Below, one piece after another: positions 33,761-54,936 of a stretch of 64,000 nt of DNA. Position 1 is the stretch's first letter, and each line of letters begins with the position of its first letter. The stretch comes from Dehalococcoidia bacterium (lineage in GTDB: Bacteria > Chloroflexota > Dehalococcoidia > Lucifugimonadales > Australimonadaceae). The DNA lies in the NCBI GenBank assembly GCA_965116015.1, contig OZ220477.1, forward strand, positions 781,704 through 845,703, given 5' to 3'. The notes under the pieces were generated by a model, which made no database searches, was not told the origin of the DNA, and saw only the letters and a list, made by a program, of their open reading frames with translations. The translations under genes and the position numbers were made by a program.

Positions 33761-33771
33761 CGCCGCCCCCC

Positions 33772-34853: not shown

Positions 34854-34937
34854 AACCTCACATCCCTTTCCCTAATCGTTCCCTAGCCCAATCGACCCCT
34901 AGCCCAACTGCCGCCTCTAGCCTCCCGCAGTATGGTG

Positions 34938-35720: not shown

Positions 35721-35809
35721 AGCTCGCCTCCTATGCCTCTGCTTGACCGTATCCCCTCGCCCCCGCCCACCTCCCCCCAACAGGGGAGGAGGGCAGGGCG
35801 CCCCCCAAC

Positions 35810-37072
35810 CTACCGATCGATCCTACGCTCCTCCAGAACCTCCACCTTGTACTCCGCATCGTACTCCGCCGGCATCTCCACCTGGCGCGACAACTCAACC
35901 TGCTTATGCGTCCGCGTTGACTCATTGATCGCAAGCCCAACCTCCAGCGTCGCCATCCCCCACGCCCCGCTATGAAACACCGGACGCCCAAGCCGCACCG
36001 CGTTGTACAACTCCTCCAACTCCTGATCCCGATGCAGCGGATCAGAATCCACAATCAACTCCGTCAACCCATCATCCGTATACCTGTACAACCCCTCCGG
36101 ACCCTGACGCAGCTCCCCAAACTCGCAACTCACAATCACGATCCCCAGATCATTCGGCTTCCACCGCTCCGGACCATGCTCCCGGCGGAAAAACTGCCGC
36201 TCACCCTCCCCCCCGATCCGCAACGACAACTTCTCCTCATCCTCAGGACGCGTCCCCGCCGCCATAGCCCTCCGGATACTATTCCGCTCCCCCGGCGTAT
36301 ACCGCGTATTCGCATCACCCCACGGCACAAGCTCCGACGCCACAAAATACCCATACCCATTGTGGATCGCCACACCCGTAACCCCGCTCTCAAACTCCAG
36401 AAACGCCGCATAGTACCCCGGAATAGACCGATACTTCATCCACTGACCATAAGCCCCCCGAACACTCCTCGCCTTCCCTCCCGCGATCAAACGAATGCTG
36501 TCGATCTGATGCGGAGTCTGACGATACACCAACCCTCCCCCCTGATCCGGATCAAGCTCATCCGCCGTCCGCGGACGTATCACCCAATCCGTATACGCAA
36601 TCGCATTCACCGCCCCAAGCTCCCCCAACTCCCCCGACGCCACAATCTGACGCATCAACCTCACATGCGGCTGGAAACTCTGCGTATGCCCCGCCACCAG
36701 CTTCACCCCATTCCGATCGCACGCCTCCACCATCTCCTCAGCCTGCCGAATATCCAGCGCCATCGGCTTCTCAACCACAACATGCTTCCCATGATTCGCC
36801 GCCAGCACAGTCATCGGCGCATGGAACCGATTCGGCGTCGATATCCACACCGCCTCAACATCCGGATCCCGAACAAGCCCCTCCGCGCTGTCGAAAACCC
36901 GCGCCTCCTCATACCGAGCCTTGAACCGCGCACGAACATCCGGATTCACATCCGCCCCAGCGAACAGATCGATATACGGAGCCCGCTCCATCGGAGGCAA
37001 CATCTCCGCAGCCCCAACCCCGATCCCGATCACCCCCAACTTCAGCGGCCTCGCCTCTCCTGTCGTCATCAT
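35810..37072 (-). CDS. Gfo/Idh/MocA-family oxidoreductase
   Basis: Internal start MMTTGEARPLKLGVIGIGVGA with GGAAGGAG RBS. EKPMA motif present. Confidence 0.8.
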   Translation of the reverse strand: MMTTGEARPLKLGVIGIGVGAAEMLPPMERAPYIDLFAGADVNPDVRARFKARYEEARVFDSAEGLVRDPDVEAVWISTPNRFHAPMTVLAANHGKHVVVEKPMALDIRQAEEMVEACDRNGVKLVAGHTQSFQPHVRLMRQIVASGELGELGAVNAIAYTDWVIRPRTADELDPDQGGGLVYRQTPHQIDSIRLIAGGKARSVRGAYGQWMKYRSIPGYYAAFLEFESGVTGVAIHNGYGYFVASELVPWGDANTRYTPGERNSIRRAMAAGTRPEDEEKLSLRIGGEGERQFFRREHGPERWKPNDLGIVIVSCEFGELRQGPEGLYRYTDDGLTELIVDSDPLHRDQELEELYNAVRLGRPVFHSGAWGMATLEVGLAINESTRTHKQVELSRQVEMPAEYDAEYKVEVLEERRIDR

Positions 37073-37374
37073 CGCTCCTTCCTCATACTGCAATCCCGCT
37101 TGCCAAAACCCTCTCCCGTCCCTCAACCCTGTTCCCGACCCAACTCCTGCCCGCCCCAGCCACAACCCCCCGGCCACCCAACGGCTCGCGCCCAACTCCC
37201 CCGAGCCCAGTCCTCGCCCGGAGACGACGCGCGCCGGCGCCGAAACCCTACAGCAACTCCCCCGTCCCCTCAACCAACCCCCTGGCCCCCTCCCCCCGCC
37301 GCCCCCCCCCCCAACCCCGCGACAGGGCAGGGGAGACTCCCTCGCGCCCCCTCCCCCCAGCTATCATAGCCCCC

Positions 37375-38352
37375 ATGAACCACCACAGACCCCCGCTATT
37401 CTCCGTCGGCGGAAGCTCCGGCCTCGGATGGCAAACCCTCCTCGACGTCTGCAAAACCTGCGAGCGCGCCGGCTACTTCGCCTTCTACCCATCCGACCAC
37501 CTCATGACCGTCCAGGCCGGCAAAGGACCCTCCCCAGACCGCCTCGACGCCCTCGCCGCGCTCGCCGCCCTCTCCGCCCACACCTCCACCCTCCGCCTCG
37601 GAGTCCTCGTCGCCAACAACCTCTTCCGACACCCCGTCGTCACCGCCAAAATCCTCAACACAATCGACCACGCATCCAACGGACGCGCAGAACTCGGCCT
37701 CGGCGCCGGATGGGCCCAACCCGAACACGACGCCCACGGATTCCCCTTCCCCCCGCCCCCTCAGCGCATCGACATGCTCGACGAAGCCCTCTCCGTCATC
37801 AAAGCCCTCTGGACCACCGAACCCGCCAACTTCAAAGGAACCTACTACAACCTCCGCGACGCCCCCCACATCCCCAAACCCATCCAGAAACCACACCCCC
37901 CCATCATCGTCGGAGGCATAAGCCCACGCACAATGCGCGTCGCACTCAAACACGCCGACGACTGGGACCAGATCGCCCCCATCCGGCAAGTCGCCCGCAA
38001 CATCCAGCGCTTCCGCGACCAAGCCGCCGAAAACAGACGCAACCTAACCCAAATGCGCTTCTCCGTCCAAACCCCATTCAACTTCGTCCAAACCCGCGCC
38101 CAAGCCAACCGCATCATCGACAACGCCATCGCCAGCCTCAACTACGGAGCCCAAAACCCCGCCCCCGGCTACAACAACCTCCGCGAACACATCGCCGACT
38201 CCCGACTCCTCGGATCCCCCGACGAAATCACCGACCAGATAGGCCGCTGGATCGACGCCGGAGTCAACCACTTCATCCTCACAACCCCGCGCCCCTTCTC
38301 CCCCGAACCCCTCGAAACCTTCATCGCCAAAGTCGCCCCAGCCTTCCGCTAA
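37375..38352 (+). CDS. Luciferase-like monooxygenase (LLM-class flavin/F420 oxidoreductase)
   Basis: 325 aa with LRLGVLVANNLFRHPVVTAK and NGRAELGLGAGW. Confidence 0.8.
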   Translation: MNHHRPPLFSVGGSSGLGWQTLLDVCKTCERAGYFAFYPSDHLMTVQAGKGPSPDRLDALAALAALSAHTSTLRLGVLVANNLFRHPVVTAKILNTIDHASNGRAELGLGAGWAQPEHDAHGFPFPPPPQRIDMLDEALSVIKALWTTEPANFKGTYYNLRDAPHIPKPIQKPHPPIIVGGISPRTMRVALKHADDWDQIAPIRQVARNIQRFRDQAAENRRNLTQMRFSVQTPFNFVQTRAQANRIIDNAIASLNYGAQNPAPGYNNLREHIADSRLLGSPDEITDQIGRWIDAGVNHFILTTPRPFSPEPLETFIAKVAPAFR

Positions 38353-38585
38353 CCCAACCCCCAACCCGCACCCACACACAGCGGACGCCCCCTCCATCGT
38401 CCCCCGGGAACGCGGAATGCGGACGCCCCTCAATGACCCCCCAACGCCCCCCAGAACAGGGCAGGGTAGGGACCCCAACGCGCCCCCGCGCCCCCTCAAA
38501 CCTGTCATCTTCGCGACACTTCCCCGTTGCGCCATACGCCACACCCCCCGTACCCTGTCCCTTATCCCCCCTCTCCTACGCCTCC

Positions 38586-38698
38586 CTGTCTCGCACTGTC
38601 TCGCATCCCTCTAACCCCCTCCGCCCCCTGTCTCATTTCGTCTCATTCCAGACCTGTTCCAGACCCAAAACAGACCTATCCCAGACCTGATCAGACCC
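38586..38698 (+). promoter_or_regulatory. Phased direct repeats: CTGTCTCGCA x2 / GTCTCAT x2, then CAGACC x5 at 11-bp spacing
   Basis: CAGACC starts at 38649, 38660, 38671, 38682 and 38692. The tandem CTGTCTCGCA copies start at 38586 and 38596. The cluster ends 37 nt upstream of the 38735 HTH gene. Confidence 0.55.
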
Positions 38699-38734
38699 GC
38701 CGCAACCCCCGATTCACGAGTGGAATGACACACT

Positions 38735-39169
38735 ATGGAACAAAATGAAACAGATTTCACAGAACCCACAGACTCCGAAGAACCCCTCTCCGACAGGCAA
38801 CTCCTGGCCCTCCCCTTCATCGCCGCCGCATCGCCATCCATCACCCAAGGAGCCAAAGCCGCCGGCATCGCACGCTCAACCCTCATCCGATGGCGCAGAG
38901 ACCCCCACTTCCGCGCCGAACTCGAACGCATGCGCAGCGAAGCCGCATCCCTCGCCTACACCGAACTCCAGGGACTCGTCCTCAAAAGCGTCAACTCCCT
39001 CGCCGAACTCCTCGAACACCAAAACCCCAGCGTCCGCCTCAGCGCCATCCGATCCGTCCTCAGCAGCGCCTTCAGAGCCAACGACCTCAACCAACTCTAC
39101 AACCGCTTCGACGTCATCGACAACTCCATCTCCCTCCTCAAAAACGAAACCATCCGCAAACCCCGCTAA
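38735..39169 (+). CDS. HTH-domain protein (144 aa)
   Basis: ITQGAKAAGIARSTLIRWRRDPHFRAELE resembles the HTH of small phage/plasmid-type DNA-binding proteins. Confidence 0.6.
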   Translation: MEQNETDFTEPTDSEEPLSDRQLLALPFIAAASPSITQGAKAAGIARSTLIRWRRDPHFRAELERMRSEAASLAYTELQGLVLKSVNSLAELLEHQNPSVRLSAIRSVLSSAFRANDLNQLYNRFDVIDNSISLLKNETIRKPR

Positions 39170-39259
39170 ACCCAACCTCCCGCCCCTCCAAACGCCCCCA
39201 CACCTCTACCTCCTCCCCGCAACAACCCAAACAACCCAGCTCCGAAAGGCGACCCCCCT

Positions 39260-39568
39260 ATGAAATCCTCCCTCCGCAGCATCGAACGCTACCTCATCGT
39301 CCAGATACTCCAGATCCGCCTCCAGCCCGTAGCCGACAACTTCGCCCAACGATGCGCCCACGCCATCGACAACAACAAACCATTCCCCGACATCATCGAC
39401 CTCATCCAGAACGCCGTCGCCGCCAGAGTCCCCGTCCTCGCCATCGCCCCCGTCGACAACTACCTCCAGAACTGCCAGCGCAAACGCGAGTATCCCGACC
39501 CCGACACCATCGTCCACAACATCGTCTTCGGCCTCAGCCTCGCCCGCCCCCACCTCCCCCCGCGCTAA
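39260..39568 (+). CDS. Hypothetical protein (102 aa)
   Basis: ORF with local codon bias, co-directional with the 38735 gene. No recognisable motif. Confidence 0.4.
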   Translation: MKSSLRSIERYLIVQILQIRLQPVADNFAQRCAHAIDNNKPFPDIIDLIQNAVAARVPVLAIAPVDNYLQNCQRKREYPDPDTIVHNIVFGLSLARPHLPPR

Positions 39569-39683
39569 CAACCAACTCCCATCCCCCAAACAAACCCCCG
39601 CCCAACCCCCCAAACCCCAACGACTACCCCCACAAACCAAACCCGCTATCATCCCTCCCGGCGCACAGCCAGGAGAACCACCA

Positions 39684-40643
39684 ATGACCAACACCCTCTT
39701 CAGCCTCGGCGGAAGCTCAGGCCTCGAATGGGCCGACTTCCTCCAAATATGCCAAACCTGCGACCAGCTCGGCTTCCACGCCTTCTACCCCTCCGACCAC
39801 CTTATGCAGATCCACCCCGGACGCGGCGCAACCCCCGCCCGCCTCGACGGCCTCACCGCTATGGCCGCAATCGCCGGTCACACCAAAAACCTCCGCCTCG
39901 GAATGCTCGTCATCAACAACAACCTCCGACACCCCGTCATCACCGCCAAAATCATCAACACCATCGACCACGCATCCAACGGACGCGCAGAAATGGGCAT
40001 CGGCTCAGGAAACGTCAAACACGAATTCGACGTCCACGGAATCCCATTCCCACCCTTCCCCGAACGAACCCAACGCCTCGACGAAGCCCTCTCCGTCATC
40101 AAAGCCATCTGGACCGACGAACCCGCAACCTTCAACGGAACCTACTACAACCTCAACCAAGCCCCCCAAATGCCCAAACCCATCCAAAAACCACACCCCC
40201 CCATCATCGTCGGCGGACGCGGCGACCAAACCCTCCGCATCGCCGCCAAGCACGCCAACGACTACAACCAGATCGCACCCCTCCAAGAAGCCAAAATCAA
40301 CCTCGCCCGTATGCAAACAATCTGCAACGAAACAGGCAAAGACATCTCCGCAATGCGACGCTCCATCCAGATACAGATCAACCTAACCGACGACAAAACC
40401 GCCGTCGAACAAACCATCGCCCGCGGCGCCGCCCTCGCCACCCAGCGCCCCGCCGCCCACTACGCCTCCCCCGAAGACCAGGCCCGCGACAGCATGCTCC
40501 TCGGATCCCCAGCCGAAATCGTCGACCAGCTCGGCCGCTGGACCGAAATCGGCGTCAACCACTTCATCCTCATGACCCCCAGACCATTCAACCCCGCCAT
40601 AATGGAACGCTTCGCCGCCCAAATCGCCCCCCACTTCCCCTAA
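39684..40643 (+). CDS. Luciferase-like monooxygenase (LLM class), paralog of 37375..38352
   Basis: 319 aa with LRLGMLVINNNLRHPVITAK and NGRAEMGIGSG. Colinear with the upstream paralog. Confidence 0.8.
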   Translation: MTNTLFSLGGSSGLEWADFLQICQTCDQLGFHAFYPSDHLMQIHPGRGATPARLDGLTAMAAIAGHTKNLRLGMLVINNNLRHPVITAKIINTIDHASNGRAEMGIGSGNVKHEFDVHGIPFPPFPERTQRLDEALSVIKAIWTDEPATFNGTYYNLNQAPQMPKPIQKPHPPIIVGGRGDQTLRIAAKHANDYNQIAPLQEAKINLARMQTICNETGKDISAMRRSIQIQINLTDDKTAVEQTIARGAALATQRPAAHYASPEDQARDSMLLGSPAEIVDQLGRWTEIGVNHFILMTPRPFNPAIMERFAAQIAPHFP

Positions 40644-41560
40644 CCCAACACCCACCCAACCCCCAGCCCCACAAAGAACGCCCAACCCCACCAACCCAAG
40701 CCCCCCCACCGCCCAAACTACCCCCACTCCCCCCTAACCCAATCCCAACCATCACCCACAGCCGCCGACCCACAAGAACGCCCAACCCCGCCAACCCCAG
40801 CCGCCCCCCAAGAACGCACAGCGCCGCCAACCCCAGCCAGCCCCCGCCCAAATCGCCCCTCACTTCCCCTAACCCCAACCCAACCCCCCAGCCGCCCTCG
40901 CAGAAACCACCCTCGCTCCTCCTCACCCAGCCCCAGCCCCCCAGCCACCGCCCCCACAAGAACGCAGCCACCGCCCAAATCGCCCCCCACTCCCCCTAAC
41001 CCAACACCCACCCAACCCCCAACCCCCAGCCCCACAAAGAACGCCCAACCCCACCAACCCCAGCCCCCCACCGCCCAAACTACCCCCACTCCCCCTAACC
41101 CAATCCCAGCCAACCCCCCAGCCGCCGACCCCACAGGAACGCGCAGCGCCGCCAACCCCAACCCGCCCCCGCAGAAACCAACCCCCCAACCCATACCCAG
41201 CCAGCTCCCCAGCCGCCGACCCCACAGGAACGCGCAGCGCCGCCAACCACCAACCCGCCGCCGCAGAAACCAACCCCCCAACCCAACCCCCAATCCCCCC
41301 AGCCGCCGACCCCACAGAAACGCGCAGCGCCGCCAACCCCAGCCCGCCCCCGCAGAACCACCCCCACAACCCATACCCAGACAGCTCCCCAGCCGCCGAC
41401 CCACAGGAACGCGCAACGCCGCCAACCCCAACCCGCCCCCGAAGAAACCGCCCCCACTTCCCCCAACCCAACCCCGGAGCCCCAGCCGCAGCACCCCCCA
41501 AGTAGAGAGCGCGCAACCCCAAGAGCGCCAAGCCCCCGCCAAACAACCCCGAAGCTCCCC
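40600..41560. repeat. ~940-bp non-coding C-rich satellite: 356-bp duplication including the LLM gene 3' end, plus four ~90-bp units
   Basis: CCGCCCAAATCGCCCC.CACT.CCCCTAACCC at 40615 (gene end), ~40849 and 40971. GCCGCCGACC(C)CACAG.AACGCGCA.CGCCGCCAACC at 41121, 41212, 41302 and 41392. Confidence 0.85.
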
Positions 41561-41578
41561 AGCCCCGAAACAGGAAAC

Positions 41579-42043
41579 CTACTTGCTCAGACCCATCCTC
41601 ACAACAACCTCAAACTCCGCCTCCGTCACCGGCGTTATCGACAACCGATTCCCCCGCCTCAGCACAACCATCTCCCCCAACTCCGGCTCCGACCGCAACT
41701 CATCAGCCGACACAATACCGTTGAACCTCTCATCCGCCCTGATATCCACCATCCACCAGATTGGCTTATCCGGAGTACTCTTCGGATCAGGATGATCCGA
41801 CCCCGGATCCCAAGCCGTGTGATCCGGATACCCCTCCCTCACAACCGTCGCCGTCCCCGCCACCCCGATCGGATTCGCGCTCGAATGCCAGAACAACACC
41901 CTATCCCCCGCCTTAATCGCATCCCGAAGCCAATTCCTCACCCGGAAATTCCGCACCCCGTCCCACTCGGCAACCCCATCCGCAACCAGATCATCATAGG
42001 AGTACGTCCCCGGCTCCGACTTGAACAGCCAGTAACTCGTCAT
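41579..42043 (-). CDS. EVE (PUA-like) domain protein
   Basis: Internal start MTSYWLFKSEPGTYSYDDLVADGVAEWDGVRNFRVRNWLRDAIKAGDRVLFWHS. Confidence 0.8.
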   Translation of the reverse strand: MTSYWLFKSEPGTYSYDDLVADGVAEWDGVRNFRVRNWLRDAIKAGDRVLFWHSSANPIGVAGTATVVREGYPDHTAWDPGSDHPDPKSTPDKPIWWMVDIRADERFNGIVSADELRSEPELGEMVVLRRGNRLSITPVTEAEFEVVVRMGLSK

Positions 42044-42286
42044 TGCCAGCCCTCCCGCAGAGTAGACCGCGAGTATAGCCCACCCCTCCCCGCGCTTGAC
42101 ATTCCCCCTCTCCATAGCCGCTAATGGAATACGGAACAGAGATTACCCAAATGGCCTCGAACACCCTGCGTCCCCCTCAGCCTCCCCCCTCAAACGGCGC
42201 CCCCTCTCGCCGGCGCCTCTCCCAAACCTCCGCCCAAAAGACGCCGCAACCTCCCCCGCTCGGCGCGAGCCAAACGCCATCCCCAT

Positions 42287-42442
42287 CCCCAACCTCCAGC
42301 GAACGTACCCCCTCGCCCAACCACACGCCCCCCTCGCTCAACCCAAGAACGCCCGCAAACCCACCCCCAACCTCCAGCGAACGTACCCCCTCAGCCAACC
42401 ACACGCCCCCCTCGCTCAACCCAAGAACGCCCGCAAACCCCT
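42287..42442. repeat. Tandem repeat, 2 x 78 bp
   Basis: CCCCAACCTCCAGCGAACGTACCCCCTC.GCC.AACCACACGCCCCCCTCGCTCAACCCAAGAACGCCCGCAAACC at 42287 and 42365. Confidence 0.8.
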
Positions 42443-42504
42443 CCTCCCCATCATCGCTCGCGCGAGCATTGCTCGGACTGCGCCCCCTGACCCCGAGCTC
42501 ATGG

Positions 42505-42915
42505 ATGACCCCCCGCGCCAACCCCTCGCGCCCGCCTCGATGGCGTCTCCTCCTCTCCATCGCCCTCGTCTACGCCCTCCTCCTGCCCCTCTACGGCTCC
42601 CTGATCTCCCCCGCATTCATCGAACTCCTCCCCAACCACGCCCACATCCACCCCAGCGGCCACCTCGCCCCGCATCTCCACTCCTACGAAACCCCGCCCG
42701 GCGCCCCCGACGACAGCAGCGGCGTATTCGCCATCCCCCCTGACAACGACGGATCCTCTGCCGGAGGCCTCGCCGCAGCCGCCCTCGCAGCCCTCATCCT
42801 CCTCGCAGCCCCCCCCCTCCTCCGACAAGTCCCCCCCCAGAGCCTCGCGCGGCTCGTCGCCGTAACCCTTCCCACAAGCCCTCCCCCTCCACGACTCGCC
42901 CCCCTCCTCAGCTGA
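42505..42915 (+). CDS. Small membrane protein with His-rich loop (HAHIHPSGHLAPHLH)
   Basis: In-frame ATG at 42505 inside ORF 42124..42915. Two TM segments flank the His cluster. Start and reality are uncertain. Confidence 0.4.
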   Translation: MTPRANPSRPPRWRLLLSIALVYALLLPLYGSLISPAFIELLPNHAHIHPSGHLAPHLHSYETPPGAPDDSSGVFAIPPDNDGSSAGGLAAAALAALILLAAPPLLRQVPPQSLARLVAVTLPTSPPPPRLAPLLS

Positions 42916-42936
42916 TTCCCTCCTCCAGGAGACGGG

Positions 42937-43491
42937 GTGAAGAAAAGAAATCTGCCCAGCTGGCGCATCGCGCCCGCTCGAGCAACCTTGCTCATAGCGC
43001 TCGTCCTGACCCTCAGCGTCGCCCCAGCGCACGCCCACGGACAACACGACCTCGAAGTCGAGCTCTTCCGCGGACCCTACGGCCCCTACGAGCTCTGGGT
43101 TACCGCCGTACCCCTCGTCGGATTCCTCGAAATCGCCGTCACCTTCCAACCAAACAACCCAGACGCAACGCTCGACTACAACCCAAGAGTCGTCGTAACC
43201 GCCGAACGCAACGGCCAGCGCCTCGGCCCCGGAACCGCCGCTCGCGCCTTCCTCGTAACCGCAAACGACTACTCAATCACCTTCGCTCCCGCATCCGCCG
43301 GAGAATGGCGCGTCCAAATCAACATCGACTCCGAGCGCAGCCCCGCCTCCCTCACACTCCCGGTCGACGTCGTCGCCGGGCGGGGATTCCCGTGGACAAC
43401 CCTCCTCGCAGGGCTCGGCCTGCTCCTCCCCATCCTCTGGCTGCTGTGGGGAGCCATCCGCCGGGCTCGCTCAGAAAGGCCAACGCCATGA
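42937..43491 (+). CDS. Secreted protein with C-terminal TM anchor
   Basis: Signal peptide ...SVAPAHAHG, GTG start after AGGAGA, beta-rich body and a terminal TM helix. Confidence 0.6.
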   Translation: MKKRNLPSWRIAPARATLLIALVLTLSVAPAHAHGQHDLEVELFRGPYGPYELWVTAVPLVGFLEIAVTFQPNNPDATLDYNPRVVVTAERNGQRLGPGTAARAFLVTANDYSITFAPASAGEWRVQINIDSERSPASLTLPVDVVAGRGFPWTTLLAGLGLLLPILWLLWGAIRRARSERPTP

Positions 43492-43916
43492 CAACCACCC
43501 AATCGGCTACCCCCGCCACCCCCAGCGCCCCCATCGCGCTCGCCATCGCCATCATCGCCGCCGCCCTCGCGCTTGCCGCATGCGGCGGCGCAGAGCCCCA
43601 GTTCCACATATTCAACCTCGCAACAACGCACGGCAAGCTCGCAAGCGGAAACGACGCCTTCGTCGTAAACCAGGGAGACGACGTCGCCTTCAACGTCTCC
43701 TCCGACTCCCCCGGAGTATTCCACATCCACGGCTACGACCTGCGCGCAAGGGTTGAAGCAGGCGGCAGCGGCCAGATCAAGTTCGATGCCGGCGCCACCG
43801 GCAGATTCGAGATCGCCTTCCACCCCGCAGACGCCGCCCACCATATGACCGATATGGACGGGATGACAGGCGAACCAGACATCGTCATCGCATGGCTCGA
43901 AGTGCAGCCCGGATAG
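43488..43916 (+). CDS. Cupredoxin-like lipoprotein
   Basis: ATG overlaps the upstream stop (ATGA). Lipobox LALAACGG, then GVFHIHGYD...FEIAFHP. Confidence 0.6.
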   Translation: MTTTQSATPATPSAPIALAIAIIAAALALAACGGAEPQFHIFNLATTHGKLASGNDAFVVNQGDDVAFNVSSDSPGVFHIHGYDLRARVEAGGSGQIKFDAGATGRFEIAFHPADAAHHMTDMDGMTGEPDIVIAWLEVQPG

Positions 43917-43925
43917 CGAACCGCA

Positions 43926-45566
43926 ATGACCCGCTGGAAGACGCTCTCAGCTCTCGGACCTCTCCTGCTGGCGGCCGCGCCGCCCGCGGCTTACGCCCAC
44001 GGGTTCGGCGAGCGCTACGACCTCCCTGTCCCCCTCACGCTCTACATCATCGGGGCAGGGAGCGCCGTCGCCCTGTCGTTCGTCGTCATCGCCCTCTTCG
44101 CCCGCGGCGTCCCCGCAAGCGACTACCCCCGCTTCAACCTCCTGCGCTGGCGTCTGGGACGAGCTCTCGCTGACTGGCGCCTCCTGTTCGTCGTCAAACT
44201 CGCATCCGTCGTCGTCTTCATCACAGCCCTCGTCGCCGGCTTCGCCGGCAGCCAGGAGCCGAACAGCAACCTCGCCCCAACCCTCGTCTGGATCATCTTC
44301 TGGGTCGGCGTAGCCTACGTAAACGGCCTCATAGGAAACCTCTGGGCCCTCATCAACCCTTGGAAGATCCTCTTCGGTTGGGCGGAGACCATCTGGCGCA
44401 GCGGCACAGGACGCCCTCTCAGCCTCGGCGCCGAATACCCCCCGCAGCTAGGCGTCTGGCCTGCTGTCGCCCTCTTCGCCGTCTTCGCCTGGGCCGAAAT
44501 CGCATGGCCAAACTCCGGCATCCCCTCAAGCATCGCCGCCCTCGCCCTCGCATACACCGGAGTGACCTTCGCCGGTATGTTCATCTACGGTCGCGACATC
44601 TGGCTAGAGCGCGGCGAAGCCCTCTCAGTCGCAATGGCCTTCTTCGCGCGGCTCGCCCCCACAGAAGTCCGCGCTCCCGCCCCAAACAAGGAAGCGCAGC
44701 CGGAAGAACAGACGCTCGCCCCCACAGAAGTCCGCGCTCCCGCCCCAAACAAGGAAGCGCAGCCGGAAGAACAGACGCTCGCCCCCACAGAAGTCCGCGC
44801 TCCCGCCCCAAACAAGGAAGCGCAGCCGGAAGAACAGACAGTGGACGACTACCCAGCGTTCGCCTCCGCTCCAGCCCACCGCCGGGAGTGGAACCTCCGC
44901 CCGTGGAGCGCCGGCCTCCTCGTCGGCGAGCCGCTCAGCCTCTCCGCCTCCGTATTCCTCATCCTTATGCTCTCGACCGTCTCATTCGACGGTTTCGCAG
45001 AAACCCCCATCTGGGCGGCGTTCCTCGCCGACTCCTACAGCGCATTCTCCTGGCTTGGCGTCCACGCCTTCACCGGCGTCAAGACATTCGGGCTGCTGCT
45101 AACCCCGGCGGTTCTGCTCGCCGCCTTCGCCCTCGCCGCGCTAGCGATGCGCCGCCTCGGAGAATCAGAAGAGCCCATCGCCCGCGTCATCGGCAGATTC
45201 GCCGTCTCGCTGACTCCCATCGCCCTGGCGTACCACATCGCCCACTTCCTCAGCTTCCTCCTCATCCAGGGACAGCGCATCATCCCGCTCGCCTCAGACC
45301 CCTTCGGACGCGGATGGAACCTCTTCGGCACAGCCGGCTACGAAGTCGCCATCGATGTCGTGAACGCCCGCTTCGCATGGATCGCCGGGGTAGCGGCGAT
45401 CGTCGTCGGACACGTCGCAGCGGTATACGCCGCCCACATCATCGCGGGCCGCGCATTCTCCTCCCCCTCCCTCGCCCTGCGGTCGCAGCTCCCAATGATG
45501 GCCCTGATGACCGGTTACACAATGCTCAGCCTCTGGATCGTCGCGCAACCGATCGTCGCGCACTAA
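43926..45566 (+). CDS. Polytopic membrane protein with N-terminal HGFGERYDLPVP motif and an internal 3 x 21-aa repeat
   Basis: 546 aa with signal-like N-terminus and >8 TM segments. Confidence 0.7.
   Translation: MTRWKTLSALGPLLLAAAPPAAYAHGFGERYDLPVPLTLYIIGAGSAVALSFVVIALFARGVPASDYPRFNLLRWRLGRALADWRLLFVVKLASVVVFITALVAGFAGSQEPNSNLAPTLVWIIFWVGVAYVNGLIGNLWALINPWKILFGWAETIWRSGTGRPLSLGAEYPPQLGVWPAVALFAVFAWAEIAWPNSGIPSSIAALALAYTGVTFAGMFIYGRDIWLERGEALSVAMAFFARLAPTEVRAPAPNKEAQPEEQTLAPTEVRAPAPNKEAQPEEQTLAPTEVRAPAPNKEAQPEEQTVDDYPAFASAPAHRREWNLRPWSAGLLVGEPLSLSASVFLILMLSTVSFDGFAETPIWAAFLADSYSAFSWLGVHAFTGVKTFGLLLTPAVLLAAFALAALAMRRLGESEEPIARVIGRFAVSLTPIALAYHIAHFLSFLLIQGQRIIPLASDPFGRGWNLFGTAGYEVAIDVVNARFAWIAGVAAIVVGHVAAVYAAHIIAGRAFSSPSLALRSQLPMMALMTGYTMLSLWIVAQPIVAH
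44652..44840 (+). repeat. Perfect in-frame tandem repeat, 3 x 63 bp (LAPTEVRAPAPNKEAQPEEQT)
   Basis: Unit starts at 44652, 44715 and 44778. The three copies look identical by eye. Confidence 0.9.
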
Positions 45567-45583
45567 ACCAACAGGCCTCGAGC

Positions 45584-46261
45584 CTAGTACTTGGAGATGA
45601 GATTAGGAACCATCTTGCCCGTCGCCAGATAAACCACCTGCTCGGCGATATTCGTCGCCCTGTCTGCGATCCGCTCAAGGTCATGCGCGGCCCAAAGCAA
45701 ATAAGTGGCGCGCTCAATCACCGTGGGATCCTTCAGCATCAGCAGCAGCAGCTCGTGATACACCTGATCGTAGAGCCGGTCGACTTCGTCATCGTCGGAA
45801 AGCACCCGATGCGCGAGCTCCACATCCCGCTTCACCAAAGCGTCAAGCGCGGAGCGAAGCATCGCCGACGACTTCTCAGCCATCCGCGGAATGTCGACCA
45901 GCGGCTTCACCGGAGGCTGATCCCCCATCATCAAGCTGATCTTGCTGATCCCCTCCGCATAGTCGCCGATGCGCTCAAGCTCCATCGAGATATGCAGCGT
46001 GGTGATCAGCGTCCGCAGGTCGAAAGCCACCGGCTGCTGGCTGGCGATCAGGTCAACGACGCGCTCCTCCAACTCCGCCCGTCGAGCGTCGATAGCGTCG
46101 TCGTCGCGGATCACCTGCCGCGACGTCTCGAGGTCGCGATCCTTCAACGAAGCGACCGCCCCCGCGATTGCCTTCTCGACCATACTCCCCAGGCTAAGCA
46201 AGCCATCTTGCAGCTCCTTCAAAGCCTGATCGAATTGAGCTCGTGGCCGCGCGTTGTACAT
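45584..46261 (-). CDS. phoU: Phosphate signalling complex protein PhoU
   Basis: 225 aa with duplicated ERIGDYA / ERIADRA motifs. Last gene of the pst operon. Confidence 0.9.
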   Translation of the reverse strand: MYNARPRAQFDQALKELQDGLLSLGSMVEKAIAGAVASLKDRDLETSRQVIRDDDAIDARRAELEERVVDLIASQQPVAFDLRTLITTLHISMELERIGDYAEGISKISLMMGDQPPVKPLVDIPRMAEKSSAMLRSALDALVKRDVELAHRVLSDDDEVDRLYDQVYHELLLLMLKDPTVIERATYLLWAAHDLERIADRATNIAEQVVYLATGKMVPNLISKY

Positions 46262-46273
46262 CGCTCCCTCCCT

Positions 46274-47065
46274 CTAGCCAAACCGCCCTGTAATGTAGCC
46301 CTCAGTGCGTTCGTCCTGGGGATTCGTGAAAATCTGATTAGTCTCTCCGACCTCCACAAGATACCCCGCCCGATCCTCCCCCATCGTCATAAAGGCCGTC
46401 CAGTCCGACGCCCGCGCCGCCTGCTGCATATTGTGAGTAACAACAATAATCGTGTACTCCCGCTTCAGATCCCGCATAAGATCCTCGATCGCAAGCGTCG
46501 AGATGGGATCAAGCGCCGATGCCGGCTCGTCCATCAGTATGATGTCCGGCTGCACCGCGACCGCGCGCGCTATGCACAGCCTCTGCTGCTGCCCGCCCGA
46601 GAGCGCCAATCCGCTCGTCTTCAGCCTGTCCTTCACTTCGTCCCAGAGCGCCGCTCTGCGAAGCGACGATTCTATAGCCTCATCCATATTCCCGCGAAAC
46701 CCGTTGATGCGGAGGCCAAACGCCACGTTGTCGTAGATCGACTTGGGGAACGGGTTCGGCTTCTGGAACACCATGCCCACGCGCAGCCGGATCTCCGTGG
46801 GATCGACCCCCGGGGCGTAGATGTCCTCCCCATTGAAGAGCACTTGCCCCTCGACGCGAGCCCCGGGCACGAGGTCGTTCATCCGGTTGAAGCAGCGCAG
46901 CAGCGTGCTCTTCCCCGACCCCGACGGCCCGATAAGGGCAGTTACAGCATTCCGCCGCACTTCAAGGTTGATGTCGCGCAGCGCCCTGAACGACCCATAG
47001 TACATATCAAGGGTCGAAACGCTCAGCGTCGTGTCCGTAGCGTTAGCCGCAGGCGCGCTCGTCAT
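46274..47065 (-). CDS. pstB: Phosphate ABC transporter ATP-binding protein
   Basis: [29 protein letters not shown]. Confidence 0.92.
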
Positions 47066-47952
47066 TCCTCAGACCTCCTCTGCGTACGGTTGCGAATGTA
47101 GATCGCCACCGCGTTCATCGAAAGCAGAACTCCCAGCAAGATGATGATCCCAGCCGCCGCGATCCCCCTGAACCCTGCCTGAGGCTGGCTCACCCAGTTG
47201 TATATCTGAATCGGCATCACTGAAAACTCGTCGAACGGGCTGGTCGGAATGAACGTAAGGAAAACCAAAGCGCTGATCGCCACCATGGGCGCAGCCTCTC
47301 CGATCGCCCGCGACATCGCCAGAATCGTGCCCGTCATAATCCCGGGGGTCGCTTGAGGCAGCACTACATCCCGCACCGTCTGGAACTTCGTAGCCCCCAA
47401 GCCGTACGAGGCCTCCCGGTACGTCCAAGGAACAGCGCGGATCGCCTCCCGGGAGGCAATGATGACGATAGGCATCACAAGGAGAGACATCGTGAGCGCC
47501 CCAGCTATGACCGTGCGCCCCATCGAGAGAATCTGAACGAATACGGCAAGCCCCAGCAGCCCGTAAACAATAGACGGCACTCCTGCCAGATTCGACACAT
47601 TCACCTCGATAATGCGCGTCAACCAGTTCTTCGGCGCGTACTCCTCGAGGTAAATGGCGGCGCCTACGCCCACGGGCACAGTGAACAGGAACGTGAGCGC
47701 CATAATCCAGATAGTGCCGAAGATGGCGGACCTCATCCCCGCCTGCTCGGGGAATCGGGAAGGGTAGTCGGTAATGAAATGAAGGCTCAGCCAGGGCGCG
47801 CCCTCCCACAGCACCCGGATCAGCAGCGACGCCAGCCCCGCAAGGCCCAGGAAGATAGCCGCCAGGAAAAAGACGTAGGCGATCGCGCCGATCCGCTTCC
47901 GCCTCCCCAAGCGAGGGTTCAGCTGTTTGGCGAGGTTGGTCATTGAGGCCAT
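47062..47952 (-). CDS. pstA: Phosphate ABC transporter permease PstA
   Basis: 296-aa permease with EAS..LGA motif. Position after pstC. Confidence 0.85.
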
Positions 47953-47957
47953 CTCTA

Positions 47958-48938
47958 CTAGTACTCCTCACGAAAGCGCCGAACAAGGAAATGCCCGAGC
48001 ACATTCATCCCCAGCGTGAATACGAACAAGAGCAGCCCAACCGCGAAGATGGTGTTGTACTCCAGCGAGCCATGCGGCGTCTCGCCAAGAGAGAGCTGCA
48101 CGATAAAGGCTGTCATCGCCTGAATGCTCTCGATCGGATTGAAAGTCAGCCGCGGAGTGGCCCCTGCGGCAAGCGTCACCAGCATCGTCTCCCCGATAGC
48201 GCGCGAGAACGCCAGGATGAACGAGGCGATGATGCCTGAGAACGCCGCCGGAACCACGACCCGCAGAGACACTTCGAGCCGCGTGCCTCCTAGCGCGTAC
48301 GCCGCATTGCGGAGCGAGCGGGGCACGGCCACCATCGCATCCTCGCTGAGCGACGAGACCATAGGGATAATCATCAAACCCATCACGAGCCCAGCGCTGA
48401 GCGCGTTGAACACAAGCAGGTCCTCCTGAAAGGGACGCAGGGGAATCCGCTGCAACTGCGGCGTAACGAAGGTGAGAGCAAAATAGCCGTACACCACTGT
48501 AGGTATGCCGGCAAGCACCTCGAGAATCGGCTTAATCGTGCGACGCACCCTGTCGGGCGCGTATTCCGAGAGGTAGACGGCGATAGCCAGCCCGGCCGGA
48601 ACAGCCAGGGCGGCGGCAATCGTTGCAACGAGCAGGGTGCCGCTCACAAGCGGAAGAACCCCGTAGTGGCGGTTGCCCTCCGCATCCTTGAGAAGCGGCG
48701 ACCATGTAGTTCCAAACAGGAAGTCCCACAACGGAATCTCGCGGAAGAAGCCGAGCGCCTGGCTGAACAAGCTCGCCACAATGCCGAACGTCGTGATAAT
48801 CGACATAACGGCGCAGGCGAAGAAAAGCGCGTGCACAATGCGCCCCGGAAGGGCGGAGCGCCTGCGGTTCAGCTGCACGGCTTGTCCGCGCCGACGTGCC
48901 TGATATGCGAAGCCATCTCGTGCGGTAGTGTCCATCAC
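47958..48938 (-). CDS. pstC: Phosphate ABC transporter permease PstC
   Basis: 326-aa permease. Position after pstS. Confidence 0.85.
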
Positions 48939-49091
48939 CAGTTCCCCGCTCGTCTAGTAGGCCGCCGGCCTCTCCCTCTGCGCAGCAGCCTGGCTCGTCT
49001 TAGGGAAGAAGGGAGAAAGGGGGCTGTGGCCAGCCGGGCGGACCCGGTGGGAGGAAGACCACAGCCCCCCAGGAAACAGCTCCGCCAGAAG

Positions 49092-50099: not shown

Positions 50100-50172
50100 T
50101 GTTCCTCCCTGCTTGGTAGTTCGACCTCAACGGTACGGGAGCCAAGTTAACGCGCGAACTGAACCCCCATTC

Positions 50173-50460
50173 GGCGCCAAGCTCGAGCCCGACTACCCTA
50201 TCAATCTCTTCCCCCTTTGCCGTCAACATCAGAATCGGCGCATCGGACTCGCGGCGGAGGATGCGGCAGACCTCGAGGCCATCCATCTCAGGGAGCATCA
50301 GATCAAGCGCCACGAGGTCGGGAGACGCCGAACGCGCAGTTTCGAGGCCGACGGCTCCGTCCTCAGCGGTAAGCACGTTGTACCCTTCACGCTCAAGGTT
50401 GTACTTCAGCGCTTCGAGGAGAGTCTCCTCATCTTCAATGATCAGAACGGTGCTGCTCAT
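50173..50460 (-). pseudogene. Truncated OmpR/PhoB-type response regulator (receiver domain, first ~96 codons only)
   Basis: MSSTVLIIEDEETL...DLVALDLMLPEMDG...ILMLTAKGEEIDRVVGLELGA, then homology stops. No DDY or winged-helix part follows, and the reading frame runs into pstS. Confidence 0.6.
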
Positions 50461-50541
50461 CCCTCTACGTCCTCAGGCCGCCTGTGTCGCGCCGACAGCT
50501 CGTCCTCGCTGTCATTCTATGGCTCTCCTTGCTACAGCCTG

Positions 50542-50558
50542 ATTAAGTGCTTGTTAAG
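50542..50558 (-). promoter_or_regulatory. Direct repeat CTTAAC-N5-CTTAAT (11-bp phase), OmpR-family-box-like
   Basis: Read on the minus strand upstream of the truncated regulator gene. Function is inferred only from geometry. Confidence 0.25.
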
Positions 50559-50595
50559 AGTCTTCTCCTGGACGCGGGCAGGAGAGCAGAGGCGG

Positions 50596-51228
50596 CTAGT
50601 ACGACTCAGCGCGGCAGATGCCTGCTTCTGGCCCTTGGCTGCCCCGGTATGCCTCCGTGAACTCGCGGAGCTGGTTGGCGTCGAAGCTCTCAAGAGGCAG
50701 CGCCCGTCCCCACACTGTTGCAGCGACCCGATACGTCATATCCGCATAGGAGCCTGCCACTATGCACTGGTTGCCCATTTCCCTCACGAACTGATTCACG
50801 GCCCCAGCCAGCTCGGGGTCGCCCGGCTGGTGCCAGATGACGACCCCCCCATGCTCCATATTGTGGATGACGCGCTCGGGAACGAGCGTCTCGCCCTTGT
50901 AACCCCAGCCGGCGTGAGGCAGGTCGAAATGATGCCCTGAGGTGGGAGGGATACGTCCCGGTATGCCCTCAACCTCCTGATTCCAGACATACGGCGGTTG
51001 GTGCGCCGCGGGCAGAAGCGGAACGGCGTACCCGATCTCTGACCCCTCGCTGCGCAGGAACAGGAAGAGCGCTACGCCAACAGCTATCGCAAGAATCGCC
51101 GCGCCAACGTAGAAGAAGACTCTGTTTCGGCCTGTGCGCTGCTGCGCCTCGGCTCGTCGCTCGCGGGCGGATCGTGCGCGCCGCGATCCCTCTCGGCGGC
51201 GCTGGCGGTCGTCAGGTGTCGTCATCAT
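50596..51228 (-). CDS. DUF3105 domain protein, membrane-anchored
   Basis: Internal start MMTTPDDRQ, one TM, then ...HNMEHGGVVIWHQPGD. Confidence 0.7.
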   Translation of the reverse strand: MMTTPDDRQRRREGSRRARSARERRAEAQQRTGRNRVFFYVGAAILAIAVGVALFLFLRSEGSEIGYAVPLLPAAHQPPYVWNQEVEGIPGRIPPTSGHHFDLPHAGWGYKGETLVPERVIHNMEHGGVVIWHQPGDPELAGAVNQFVREMGNQCIVAGSYADMTYRVAATVWGRALPLESFDANQLREFTEAYRGSQGPEAGICRAESY

Positions 51229-51236
51229 AGATCCAT

Positions 51237-52157: not shown

Positions 52158-52241
52158 ACACTACTGTAGCAGCAAGAGCCGAAACGCCGCTAGCGGAGAG
52201 ACAGGGCGGCGGCGCGGCGCCGCGCTTAGCCGGACAGGCTT

Positions 52242-53977: not shown

Positions 53978-53988
53978 CCGCTCTCTAT

Positions 53989-54813: not shown

Positions 54814-54936
54814 CCGTGTCTCCTTCGTCCCTTGGCATCATTCAGCGGGACTTCATCGTAACCGACTTTGCGCCCCAGGGGCCAGAGGGTTATCCAGCGA
54901 TTCTCAGGAGATGTGGGAGCGCAATAGCAGAATGTT

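Follow-up and report, generated by a model that had tools for sequence, protein, structure and literature searches.

A strongly strand-biased domain with a graded right edge in a Dehalococcoidia chromosome

In the Dehalococcoidia chromosome studied here, a domain of at least 43 kb carries an extreme strand asymmetry, which declines to zero over several kilobases without changing sign. The domain extends past the left end of the window, by which the whole analysed stretch of 64,000 nucleotides is meant. The genes on either side of the junction are collinear with those of relatives, most of which are unskewed. This comparison excludes an assembly chimera and the boundary of a genomic island, so that the bias arose in place in this lineage.

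Two domains of contrasting strand composition

The features of the left and right parts of the window are as follows.

1..42900, no strand assigned: saturated strand-bias domain, plus strand C/A-rich and minus strand G/T-rich (from skew, GC3 skew, 4-fold sites and Pfam)
5199-5274, minus strand: tRNA-Arg in the left domain (tRNA scan)
9313-10440, plus strand: dnaN, inside the skewed domain (Pfam)
40630..41451, plus strand: nine tandem C/A-rich units of ~90 nt each (repeat family D1), in the intergenic gap adjoining the junction
50900..64000, no strand assigned: unbiased domain, skew -0.004, coding fraction ~0.90 (with Pfam annotation)

For the stretches 1-43.7, 43.7-50.9 and 50.9-64 kb, the mean GC skew is -0.39, -0.15 and 0.00, respectively. 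Computed in 2-kb windows, it ranges from -0.28 to -0.54 within 1-43 kb, then takes the values -0.36, -0.23, -0.20, -0.17, -0.12 and -0.05 up to 49 kb, and stays close to zero (-0.07 to +0.08) from 50 to 64 kb. A change-point analysis, one of the checks proposed in an earlier note on this DNA, was run as a likelihood segmentation of the G/C series. It placed change points at ~43.73 kb and ~50.86 kb, with segment skews of -0.376, -0.472, -0.149 and -0.004. Neither the computed profile nor the segmentation contains a sign inversion within 20 kb of the junction, which bears out the claim of that note that the skew fades without flipping. The base composition changes from A.220, C.447, G.195 and T.138 on the left to A.200, C.323, G.304 and T.172 on the right. 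Coding density, which the note had put at about 75% and 93% on the two sides of the junction, rises from 0.70 left of 42.9 kb to 0.90-0.96 right of it, according to the gene list compiled here.

The left domain contains ordinary chromosomal genes on both strands (Pfam annotation). Their GC3 skew is -0.64 to -0.87 for plus strand genes and +0.56 to +0.84 for minus strand genes, and the 4-fold sites, read in plus orientation, consist of A.18, C.72-.75, G.03-.07 and T.04 for either gene direction, a G/C asymmetry of ~-0.85 to -0.9. Since genes on both strands share this plus strand composition, the bias is a property of the DNA strand, not of codon choice. The 4-fold G content of plus and minus strand genes is.07 and.03, respectively, compared with.20 and.22 in OZ241740.1, a second skewed genome. 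Two-fold sites show the complementary change: coding-strand C/(C+T) in minus strand genes is.31 versus.95 in relatives, and G/(A+G) in plus strand genes is.21 versus.87. Unconstrained plus strand sites are thus nearly G-free regardless of gene direction, and intergenic DNA is the most biased class of all. The tandem array at 40630..41451 has a skew of -0.69 and is the most skewed stretch of the window; in OZ241740.1, the genes that flank it are separated by only 155 bp. G-quadruplex-type motifs number 91 on the minus strand of the domain versus 3 on the plus strand, but this excess was rejected as an independent signal, because mononucleotide shuffles yield a mean of 81. Rfam and tRNA scans of the window found only the tRNA-Arg. 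None of 80 JGI metagenome loci matching the Rieske protein at the left end is strongly skewed; the same scan showed that the gene order from Rieske to dnaN is kept even in relatives of 43% GC.

The right domain encodes a DUF3105 protein, an ABC transporter, UvrC, a XerC/D-like recombinase (at 59.7 kb), Lgt and a GMC oxidoreductase (Pfam). Among the listed orthologs of the last, none came from OZ241740.1; the one in OZ252088.1 has other gene neighbours and is some 50-90 kb away from the junction. The 4-fold sites of the right domain are composed of A.18, C.33, G.36 and T.13, and its minus strand genes show no shift. The 4-fold identity between the window and the relatives L001 and L004 is.50 and.48, respectively, and that between L001 and L004 is.51. 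Because synonymous divergence on the right is normal, being equal to that between relatives, the strong process is, on this comparison, absent there and not balanced.

In appearance, the edge is unlike an ordinary origin or terminus of replication, in agreement with the earlier dismissal of such a flip. Besides the constant sign of the skew, which does not invert around dnaN at 9.3 kb either, the window contains no dnaA gene, and scans for DnaA boxes and AT-rich DNA revealed no origin-like cluster that stands out; A+T does not exceed 51% in any 200-bp stretch. A less ordinary arrangement of this kind can be conceived, in which the left domain is a replichore and 50-64 kb is copied equally in both directions with zero net skew, as it would be between two alternative initiation sites or in a diffuse initiation zone, with a +0.4 domain further right. 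The polarity is origin-like, with the negative-skew domain on the left, dnaN is 34 kb away, and scattered initiation sites would give a linear ramp. Strong orientation-independent G/C asymmetry is also common in Dehalococcoidia: over whole loci of related genomes, a milder form akin to replication GC skew reaches ~+/-0.35-0.45 at 4-fold sites, with little A/T asymmetry. However, a 50:50 mix in which G sites change at ~7x background should randomise G and C and thereby saturate synonymous divergence on the right, contrary to the identities given above. Exact balance would moreover be required in two species, and no positive skew appears within 14 kb. Together with the missing DnaA-box cluster and dnaA gene, this makes such a balanced zone unlikely.

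The graded edge and the pstS gene

Between the two domains, the following features are found.

42124-43916, plus strand: three small ORFs in the fade zone (gene list)
42900..49050, no strand assigned: fade zone, a ramp of falling strand bias (GC3 shift versus unskewed orthologs; likelihood fit)
43926-45566, plus strand: gene for a 546-aa membrane protein in the fade zone (gene list)
45584-48938, minus strand: phoU, pstB, pstA and pstC in the fade zone (gene list)
49092-50099, minus strand: pstS, first gene of the leftward-transcribed pst operon, with saturated bias of the same sign as that of the domain
50100..50900, no strand assigned: outer edge of the affected region, comprising the pstS upstream region and a phoB remnant, with the change point at ~50.86 kb
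about 50170-50470, minus strand: phoB remnant, which matches only L001 18019-18309

The fade is longer and less simple than first described: it covers ~8 kb (about 42.5-50.5 kb) instead of the ~1.5 kb proposed earlier, and it is not monotonic, as pstS is fully biased. A linear ramp from 41.3 to 49.3 kb is superior to a single step by 8.0 lnL units at the cost of one extra parameter. The raw fade is partly an effect of gene orientation, because the gene strand switches from plus to minus at 45.57 kb and the coding strand of the relatives prefers C. The shift was expressed as GC3 skew relative to unskewed orthologs, in fractions of the full shift. Measured in this way, it decreases roughly linearly from full at or below 42 kb to nil at ~50.5 kb, with ~0.8 at 42.5 kb, 0.55-0.7 at 43-45.5 kb, 0.5 in phoU and pstB, 0.3-0.4 in pstA and pstC, and 0.16 at 48.5-49 kb. 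Codon usage beyond 43.9 kb, which had been taken as ordinary, is still affected; the gene for the 546-aa protein has a GC3 skew of -0.50 versus ~0 in unskewed orthologs, and phoU, pstB, pstA and pstC remain shifted by -0.45 to -0.15. Ancestral G was assigned to 4-fold sites that carry G in all of the relatives L005, L006 and L009, with L004 as the unskewed control. Such sites are now 74% C, 20% A and 4% G in the window, compared with 25% C and 64% G in L004; 32% of the ancestral G is kept in the fade zone versus 4% on the left.

The pstS gene is a second hot spot, separate from the ramp. In plus orientation, its 4-fold sites have C.63 and G.06, versus C.07 and G.79 in unskewed relatives, where the gene displays a strong codon bias (79% C-ending). 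Its ancestral G sites have become C in 74% of cases in the window genome and in 72% in OZ241740.1, and the coding (non-template, minus) strand is depleted of C in both skewed genomes. In OZ241740.1, pstS is even shifted more than the left domain of that genome. A conserved hairpin with compensatory changes is located between pstS and pstC. At 49.95 kb the pstS island seems to have a sharp inner edge, which was rejected as not real; it is due to the Thr/Pro/Ala-rich linker of the lipoprotein, the third positions of which are still without C on the minus strand.

Upstream of pstS, phoR and the C-terminal half of phoB have been deleted in the window genome relative to its relatives, and the window holds no counterpart of the L001 phoR (16210-17607). 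The bin at 50.0-50.5 kb still has a GC3 shift of -0.27, and the values beyond it are ~0. The transition noticed earlier is real, but its outer edge, with the pstS hot spot included, lies near 50.2-50.9 kb and not at 44 kb. In OZ241740.1 the edge falls between pstS and phoR, so that in both skewed genomes it lies right at the 5' end of the pst operon, which is transcribed leftward.

This coincidence and the pstS hot spot would suit a cause in transcription alone, that is, pervasive leftward transcription whose G-rich non-template strand stabilises R-loops and thereby exposes the minus strand throughout the domain. The imbalance of G-quadruplex-type motifs (91 versus 3, shuffles giving a mean of 81) points the same way. 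Yet plus strand genes, dnaN among them, are as biased as minus strand genes, intergenic DNA is the most biased class, and towards the left the bias keeps rising after the operon has ended and across convergent genes. The unshifted minus strand genes of the right domain likewise argue against transcription as the sole cause, which is very unlikely.

Origin of the bias in place

The gene order luciferase-luciferase-EVE-three small ORFs-500 aa protein-phoU-pstBACS-(phoRB)-DUF3105-ABC runs across the junction in OZ241740.1, DAOUKL010000102, CBDFLP010000017, OZ252088.1, CBDHDB010000002, OZ244741.1 and OZ252105.1. The synteny of both flanks, which the earlier note had wanted compared in related genomes, is accordingly preserved. 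Six independent Dehalococcoidia assemblies have this junction order, five of them unskewed and one (OZ241740.1) skewed. The latter displays the same profile at about half the amplitude, with the same right-hand edge and the pstS peak included. Unskewed relatives share the gene order of the segment from 33.7 to 54 kb, with amino-acid identities of 70-96%, and it is only in the skewed genes that the proteins have diverged faster.

A misjoin of two organisms has a negligible probability and is refuted as far as sequence comparison goes. The symmetrised tetranucleotide correlation between the halves of the window (r = 0.65-0.74) is indeed lower than that within each half (0.96-0.97), but skew alone would yield such a difference. 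The adjacency at the junction recurs in the seven records of independent assemblies, the change is gradual, and the genes on the left have orthologs in the relatives (77-91% amino-acid identity). These points uphold the earlier view that the junction is not chimeric. A horizontally acquired genomic island was also rejected, as the region is collinear with unskewed relatives and neither an integrase nor a tRNA is present at 42-51 kb. The proposal that two mutational histories meet here is supported by codon-aligned orthologs, which indicate that the left genes changed in place and that those beyond 50.5 kb did not.

The non-monotonic profile could also result from import followed by amelioration. 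The segment from 43.7 to 49 kb would then have been replaced from an unskewed relative and be re-acquiring the bias, and the true end of the domain would lie near 50.2 kb. Phosphate-uptake genes are often exchanged between marine bacteria, pstS beyond the segment is fully biased, and the change point at 43.73 kb is fairly sharp. None of the compared relatives, however, is closer within the segment (4-fold identity.46-.55, as elsewhere), and the shift falls gradually inside it instead of being uniform. OZ241740.1 has a matching partial shift at the same place; a shared import predicts an equal excess of left over fade zone in both genomes, but ~2.2 versus ~0.6 hits per G site were observed. The ratio of fade-zone to left-domain excess, in contrast, is alike in the two (~0.2-0.25), so a position-fixed intensity fits better than a shared past import. 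As pstS, which in OZ241740.1 exceeds its own left domain, would need its own cause anyway, import is quite unlikely.

Known asymmetries, proposed mechanism and significance

Read on the minus strand, the changes are foremost C->G, followed by C->T, G->T and A->G. Simple cytosine deamination was rejected as the whole cause, since G->C far exceeds G->A at 4-fold sites (61% versus 6% in the half-skewed genome). A motif-specific deaminase or methylase was rejected as well, because the dependence of the changes on flanking bases is weak. In the unskewed control, too, synonymous changes are most often G/C exchanges, so the spectrum as it appears is shaped by a fixation bias against codons ending in A/T.

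The composition resembles that of vertebrate mitochondrial DNA, in which, under strand-displacement replication, the 4-fold sites of one strand are rich in C and A and contain no more than a few percent of G. In the domain, the minus strand is depleted of C (.03-.07) and A (.04) at 4-fold sites in genes of any direction. The 2-fold changes C->T and A->G on the G/T-rich strand and the graded intensity along the molecule are shared too. Unlike the mitochondrial case, the asymmetry resides in a 2.39-Mb bacterial chromosome, the dominant net 4-fold change is G->C, and the bias is lowest, not highest, beside the presumed start.

With bacterial replication GC skew, the asymmetry has in common that it is a property of the strand, independent of gene orientation, and mainly affects G versus C at synonymous sites. 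In ordinary replication skew, the leading strand is G-rich and the sign switches at oriC and the terminus; here, a ramp leads to zero, and the adjoining right domain has neither skew nor raised turnover. The GC skew effect recorded in SkewDB is typically around 2.5% (PMC8941118), far below the overall -0.39 of the left domain. A further parallel is genome Ch65 of the Microgenomates candidate order UBA1400, in which a chromosome-wide G/C disparity (C 29.8% versus G 15.0%) has been attributed to possibly unidirectional replication (PMC7143001). In both cases C is roughly twice as frequent as G on one strand whatever the gene orientation, which breaks Chargaff's second rule. However, the Ch65 disparity is chromosome-wide and leaves A and T at about the same level, whereas the present one is stronger (C 44.7%, G 19.5%), includes A 22.0% versus T 13.8%, and is limited to a domain with a graded edge. 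A chromosome-uniform disparity is not seen here, as the last 13 kb of the window have a skew of -0.004. Transcription-associated mutational asymmetry is compatible with pstS alone, a promoter-proximal and presumably the most expressed gene, which lost C from its non-template strand. It was rejected for the domain, where the sign does not follow gene orientation and plus strand genes, minus strand genes and intergenic DNA are equally biased.

The strand property of the bias, its in-place origin, the ramp, the edge common to a second species and the substitution spectrum are established. The best explanation for them, which has about an even chance of being correct, is a leftward replication-type process with scattered starts that chronically damages or miscopies the minus strand, the junction first noticed being the right edge of its domain. 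A long-acting, strongly strand-specific substitution pressure, arisen in place, has acted on the domain of at least 43 kb. The process would travel leftward, a direction suggested by the empirical rule that leading strands are G-rich, and the minus strand would be left single-stranded unusually long or be copied by an error-prone mode. Starts scattered between ~50.2 and ~42.5 kb would generate a ramp and not a step, and the process would not act right of ~50.5 kb. The pstS hot spot may best be put down to very heavy transcription, during which the non-template strand would lie exposed and be damaged, with such lesions being poorly repaired in this lineage. Several observations count against this explanation. 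Normal forks must cross the right domain yet leave no skew, so a special replication mode confined to the left domain would be needed. The dnaN gene on the plus strand would be head-on to leftward forks, which is unusual for dnaN, and the dominant 4-fold change is G:C->C:G, not the C->T of deamination.

Strand specificity, a domain beginning at a fixed edge and a normal rate beyond that edge would also be obtained if the minus strand were repeatedly transferred or made as single-stranded DNA, by Hfr-type conjugation or by rolling circle from a nick near 50 kb. The ramp would then arise because the leading end is poorly inherited through recombination; markers beside that end should show such a gradient over a few kb in Hfr crosses. 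On neither side, however, does the window annotation include a relaxase, a type IV secretion gene or a replication initiator, and the right flank keeps the housekeeping gene order of unskewed relatives. Such a transfer is therefore highly improbable.

Returning to the leftward replication-type process, a more specific version has a small chance of being correct. The pst operon may serve as a transcription-primed (R-loop-primed), effectively unidirectional replication start with leftward strand displacement, comparable to mitochondrial heavy-strand synthesis and to the stable DNA replication of RNase H-deficient E. coli. The start points of synthesis would be scattered along the operon and just beyond it, and tens of kb of the parental minus strand would be left single-stranded in every generation. 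If true, this version would account for the mitochondrial-grade composition of the domain, for the pstS hot spot and for a ramp that follows the direction of transcription, as well as for the position of the edge at the 5' end of pstS in two species and the untouched DNA upstream of the promoter.

Strand asymmetry is used to locate bacterial origins and termini and is assumed to be weak, chromosome-wide and sign-changing at these sites. In the present case, the asymmetry within one domain of a bacterial chromosome is as strong as in mitochondria, with 4-fold G at 3-7%, while the adjoining DNA is untouched. Within the domain, proteins are visibly altered and coding density is lowered, and its edge recurs, conserved, in another species. 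Should the cause be a domain-restricted mode of replication or repair, mutation spectrum and rate could differ several-fold between neighbouring parts of one chromosome over evolutionary time, and composition-based binning would split such a genome, given the symmetrised tetranucleotide correlation between its halves. The uncultured Dehalococcoidia, with unskewed, half-skewed and saturated relatives at one locus, would then be a natural system for studying the origin of strand asymmetry.

Strand composition along the window

The G+C content is 64% all along the window; the strand composition nevertheless falls into two regimes. From 1 to ~43 kb, the + strand consists of A.220, C.447, G.195 and T.138, and from 47 kb onward of A.200, C.323, G.304 and T.172. 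In 2-kb windows, the GC skew, read on the + strand throughout, ranges from -0.28 to -0.54 up to 43 kb, then passes in turn through -0.36, -0.23, -0.20, -0.17, -0.12 and -0.05, and at 50-64 kb stays within -0.07 to +0.08, except for a dip at 48-51 kb. The typical bacterial GC skew is ~2.5% according to SkewDB (PMC8941118). Likelihood segmentation of the G/C series places change points at ~43.73 and ~50.86 kb, yields segment skews of -0.376, -0.472, -0.149 and -0.004, and finds no positive-skew segment in the window. At 36-49 kb, the series is described better by a linear ramp from 41.3 to 49.3 kb than by a single step, with a gain of 8.0 lnL units for one extra parameter. The windows and the segmentation thus bear out the fade without a sign flip described in the earlier note, and the change in coding density that it placed at the same junction is also found (0.70 on the left, 0.90-0.96 on the right in the gene list used here).

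The genes of the left part are of ordinary kinds and located on both strands. They include those for a Rieske oxygenase, MFS transporters, an enoyl-CoA hydratase, DnaN, a short-chain dehydrogenase, EutA, an inositol monophosphatase, a GFO/IDH/MocA oxidoreductase, two luciferase-like monooxygenases, an EVE-domain protein and tRNA-Arg. Their third-position skew is -0.64 to -0.87 for + strand genes and +0.56 to +0.84 for - strand genes, which amounts to a single composition once both are expressed on the + strand. Accordingly, the 4-fold sites on the + strand have A.18, C.72-.75, G.03-.07 and T.04 in either gene orientation. At 2-fold sites, coding-strand C/(C+T) in - strand genes is.31, compared with.95 in relatives, and G/(A+G) in + strand genes is.21, compared with.87. 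The strongest bias of all is found in intergenic DNA, with -0.69 over nine tandem C/A-rich units of ~90 nt at 40.6-41.45 kb. Because the bias is independent of orientation and peaks between genes, codon preference and transcription direction are ruled out as its cause. Pervasive leftward transcription or R-loops are very unlikely, as + and - strand genes are equally biased. The production of single strands by a conjugation-like or rolling-circle process is highly improbable, since no such genes are present in the window.

Features of the strand-biased left domain
3-1565, - strand: DUF499 ATPase gene running off the left end; its third-position bias of +0.53 is weaker than that of its neighbours
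9313-10440, + strand: dnaN (sliding clamp), inside the skewed domain, with the skew unchanged around the gene
10550-10710, 11172-11420, 11954-12176, 28076-28387 and 30391-30825: C/A-rich direct repeats
40630-41451: C/A-rich direct repeats, the nine tandem ~90-nt units, without a counterpart in the related record OZ241740.1
11200-12180, and 11858-11955 versus 13171-13268: decayed duplicates (85-94% identity), upstream of an MFS gene (12010-13272), of that gene's own start region and 3' end
33772-34281 and 34221-34853: BNR/sortilin-like gene, apparently split into two ORFs

The C/A-rich repeat families occupy intergenic gaps of the skewed domain and contribute to its low coding density. The MFS duplicates suggest a tandem duplication followed by the loss of one copy. 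G-quadruplex-type motifs number 91 on the - strand and 3 on the + strand at 1-42900, and there are none past 50.2 kb. The 91 motifs match mononucleotide shuffles (mean 81), so the excess follows from composition; such motifs could nonetheless feed back on replication or R-loop formation.

Collinear relatives and the pattern of substitution

A scan of species-representative genomes yielded 80 loci, nearly all from uncultured Dehalococcoidia or other Chloroflexota and several labelled SAR202; ortholog loci carry L-numbers. The gene order of the window at 33.7-54 kb is matched in seven records: OZ241740.1 (L001/L008), DAOUKL010000102 (L004), CBDFLP010000017 (L005), OZ252088.1 (L006), CBDHDB010000002 (L007), OZ244741.1 (L009) and OZ252105.1 (L010). 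The common order is BNR protein, oxidoreductase, luciferase, luciferase, EVE, three small ORFs, a ~500-aa membrane protein, phoU, pstB, pstA, pstC, pstS, phoR, phoB, DUF3105 and ABC transporter. Since these records were assembled independently, a chimeric assembly is practically excluded, and an island border at the junction is ruled out as well.

Only OZ241740.1 among the seven is also skewed, with -0.2 to -0.3 left of the junction and ~0 right of it. The window genome, L001 and the unskewed control L004 are roughly equidistant by protein distance (0.13-0.16 in the genes of the fade zone, 42900-49050), and L005, L006 and L009 form a tight group.

The skewed part of OZ241740.1 contains an unskewed methylase-HNH insertion (L001 4593-6254), which is paralleled in the window by the DUF499 gene, less biased than its neighbours. 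DUF499 ATPase genes are often linked to restriction or defence systems, and the weaker bias of this one would fit a later arrival in the domain. Elsewhere in the domain, the order Rieske-MFS-ECH-DUF6391-exporter-cytochrome c-dnaN is kept even in relatives of 43% GC (L086, L089; 42-83% aa identity). L087 (Ga0209021_1001746), a relative of 66% GC, shows a skew sign change from ~-0.1 to ~+0.1 at about 11-12 kb, just downstream of its Rieske and MFS genes; the change is a candidate for an ordinary skew switch, at an origin or a terminus, close to the syntenic region.

When the window genes are aligned codon by codon with orthologs of the collinear relatives, the same codons differ in third-position skew on the + strand. 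The values for left-hand - strand genes are ~-0.75 in the window, -0.2 to -0.35 in L001 and +0.2 in unskewed relatives; those for + strand genes are -0.8, -0.5 and -0.1 to -0.35, respectively. Reference G sites were defined as 4-fold sites with G in all of L005, L006 and L009. In left-hand genes, these sites are now 74% C, 20% A and 4% G in the window and 61% C, 6% A and 27% G in L001, while L004 has 25% C and 64% G and, in the reverse direction, has turned 32% of C sites to G. These counts imply that the net replacement is mainly G -> C on the + strand, with minor G -> A and C -> A. At 2-fold sites, only transitions occur, and substitutions depend weakly on flanking bases. Even in the control, synonymous changes are most often G/C exchanges, so this spectrum is probably shaped by a fixation bias that disfavours A/T-ending codons. 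Simple cytosine deamination is insufficient as a full explanation of a spectrum dominated by G -> C. Protein divergence of the window genome is elevated in skewed genes alone: the window-L004 distance is 0.16 in left genes, compared with 0.10 for L001-L004, and 0.14 compared with 0.13 in fade-zone genes.

Past 50.5 kb, the 4-fold sites are symmetric (A.18, C.33, G.36, T.13) and only somewhat richer in A/T than those of the relatives (A.08, C.42, G.43, T.06). Identity at these sites is.50 for window-L001 and.48 for window-L004, equal to the.51 of L001-L004; the window-L004 value drops to.37 in left genes and.10 in pstS. If the same strong process copied the right-hand region half the time in each direction, G and C ought to be randomised there. 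This is not the case, as identity to the relatives is normal there, which implies that the process is absent rather than balanced. A zero-skew zone of balanced forks between two alternative origins, although otherwise attractive, is thereby weakened and unlikely. Import of the pst segment, followed by amelioration, is quite unlikely: with a shared past import, the excess of change in the left domain over the fade zone should match between the two skewed genomes, but it amounts to ~2.2 versus ~0.6 hits per G site. Instead, the fade zone of both genomes has ~0.2-0.25 of the excess change that G sites show in the left domain, and this common ratio fits an intensity set by position.

The graded edge and the pst operon

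Measured against unskewed orthologs, the shift is full at <=42 kb, ~0.8 of full at 42.5 kb, 0.55-0.7 across the small ORFs and the membrane-protein gene, ~0.5 in phoU and pstB, 0.3-0.4 in pstA and pstC, and 0.16 at 48.5-49 kb; past 50.5 kb it is nil. Codon usage was described in the earlier note as ordinary from about 43.9 kb, but the gene starting there is still strongly shifted (-0.50 versus ~0 in unskewed orthologs). This membrane-protein gene (43926-45566) contains three perfectly identical tandem 63-nt copies at 44651-44839, which look like a very recent in-frame expansion and probably explain most of its extra length (546 aa compared with ~500 aa in all relatives).

The pstS gene departs from the trend, with C.63 and G.06 at + strand 4-fold sites versus C.07 and G.79 in unskewed relatives. 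The patch at its 5' end that looks unskewed reflects the amino-acid content of a Thr/Pro/Ala-rich linker. The edge of L001 has the same profile at lower amplitude, likewise with its outer limit between pstS and phoR, and pstS of L001 is shifted more than L001's own left domain. Since pstS breaks the ramp in the window and exceeds the left domain in L001, it is a separate hot spot. Within its leftward operon, pstS is the gene nearest the promoter, and the pstS genes of relatives are highly codon-biased. The - strand is the coding strand of pstS, so if the gene is very active, damage to its exposed non-template strand would shift the composition in the way seen here.

Between pstS and pstC, the operon carries a GC-rich hairpin that is conserved in L001, L004 and L006 (window 48985-49095), with the stem GGGGGCTGTGGCC/GGCCACAGCCCCC on the RNA strand. 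Compensatory changes are seen in L004, and the hairpin has kept its G content despite the bias around it; it probably acts as an attenuator or else stabilises the pstS transcript. Upstream of pstS, phoR and the C-terminal half of phoB are present in every relative but absent from the window genome (window 50100-50600 versus L001 16050-18310), where a receiver-domain remnant of ~100 codons is left of phoB. Phosphate regulation of the pst operon has therefore probably been lost or altered.

A proposed replication-type process and the closest precedents

A strand-specific substitution pressure has been shown to have arisen in place, confined to a domain with a graded edge and common to two species. 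The - strand of this domain is G/T-rich, the composition of bacterial leading strands. Read on that strand, the minor components of the spectrum are C -> T, G -> T and A -> G, the changes that a temporarily single-stranded DNA strand would be expected to collect. At other Dehalococcoidia loci, there is a milder G/C asymmetry of the kind known from ordinary replication, again regardless of gene orientation. Together, these observations suggest a leftward process of the replication type. It would traverse the domain leftward from starts scattered across ~42.5-50.2 kb and would expose or miscopy the - strand far beyond what normal forks do. Against this reading, dnaN would be head-on to such forks, the domain continues beyond the left end of the window, and scans for DnaA boxes and AT-rich stretches found no origin feature in the window. 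Synthesis primed by pst operon transcripts in a strand-displacement mode, by analogy with mitochondria, would account for where the edge lies, why the bias ramps along the transcribed direction and why pstS forms a peak; this version is tentative and rather unlikely.

Two known cases come closest. Ordinary replication skew belongs to the same kind, although it is much weaker and switches sign. The other is a G/C disparity that covers the whole chromosome in UBA1400 Microgenomates (C 29.8%, G 15.0%, A ~ T), tentatively put down to unidirectional replication by its authors (PMC7143001). The case described here differs from both in being domain-limited, stronger and ramping to zero at its end. 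Within the class, a uniform G/C asymmetry of ~+/-0.35-0.45 at 4-fold sites, with little A/T asymmetry, extends over the whole 21-kb locus in L059, L016, L015, L033, L037, L012 and L159. Strong replication skew restricted to G/C seems to be common in the Dehalococcoidia.
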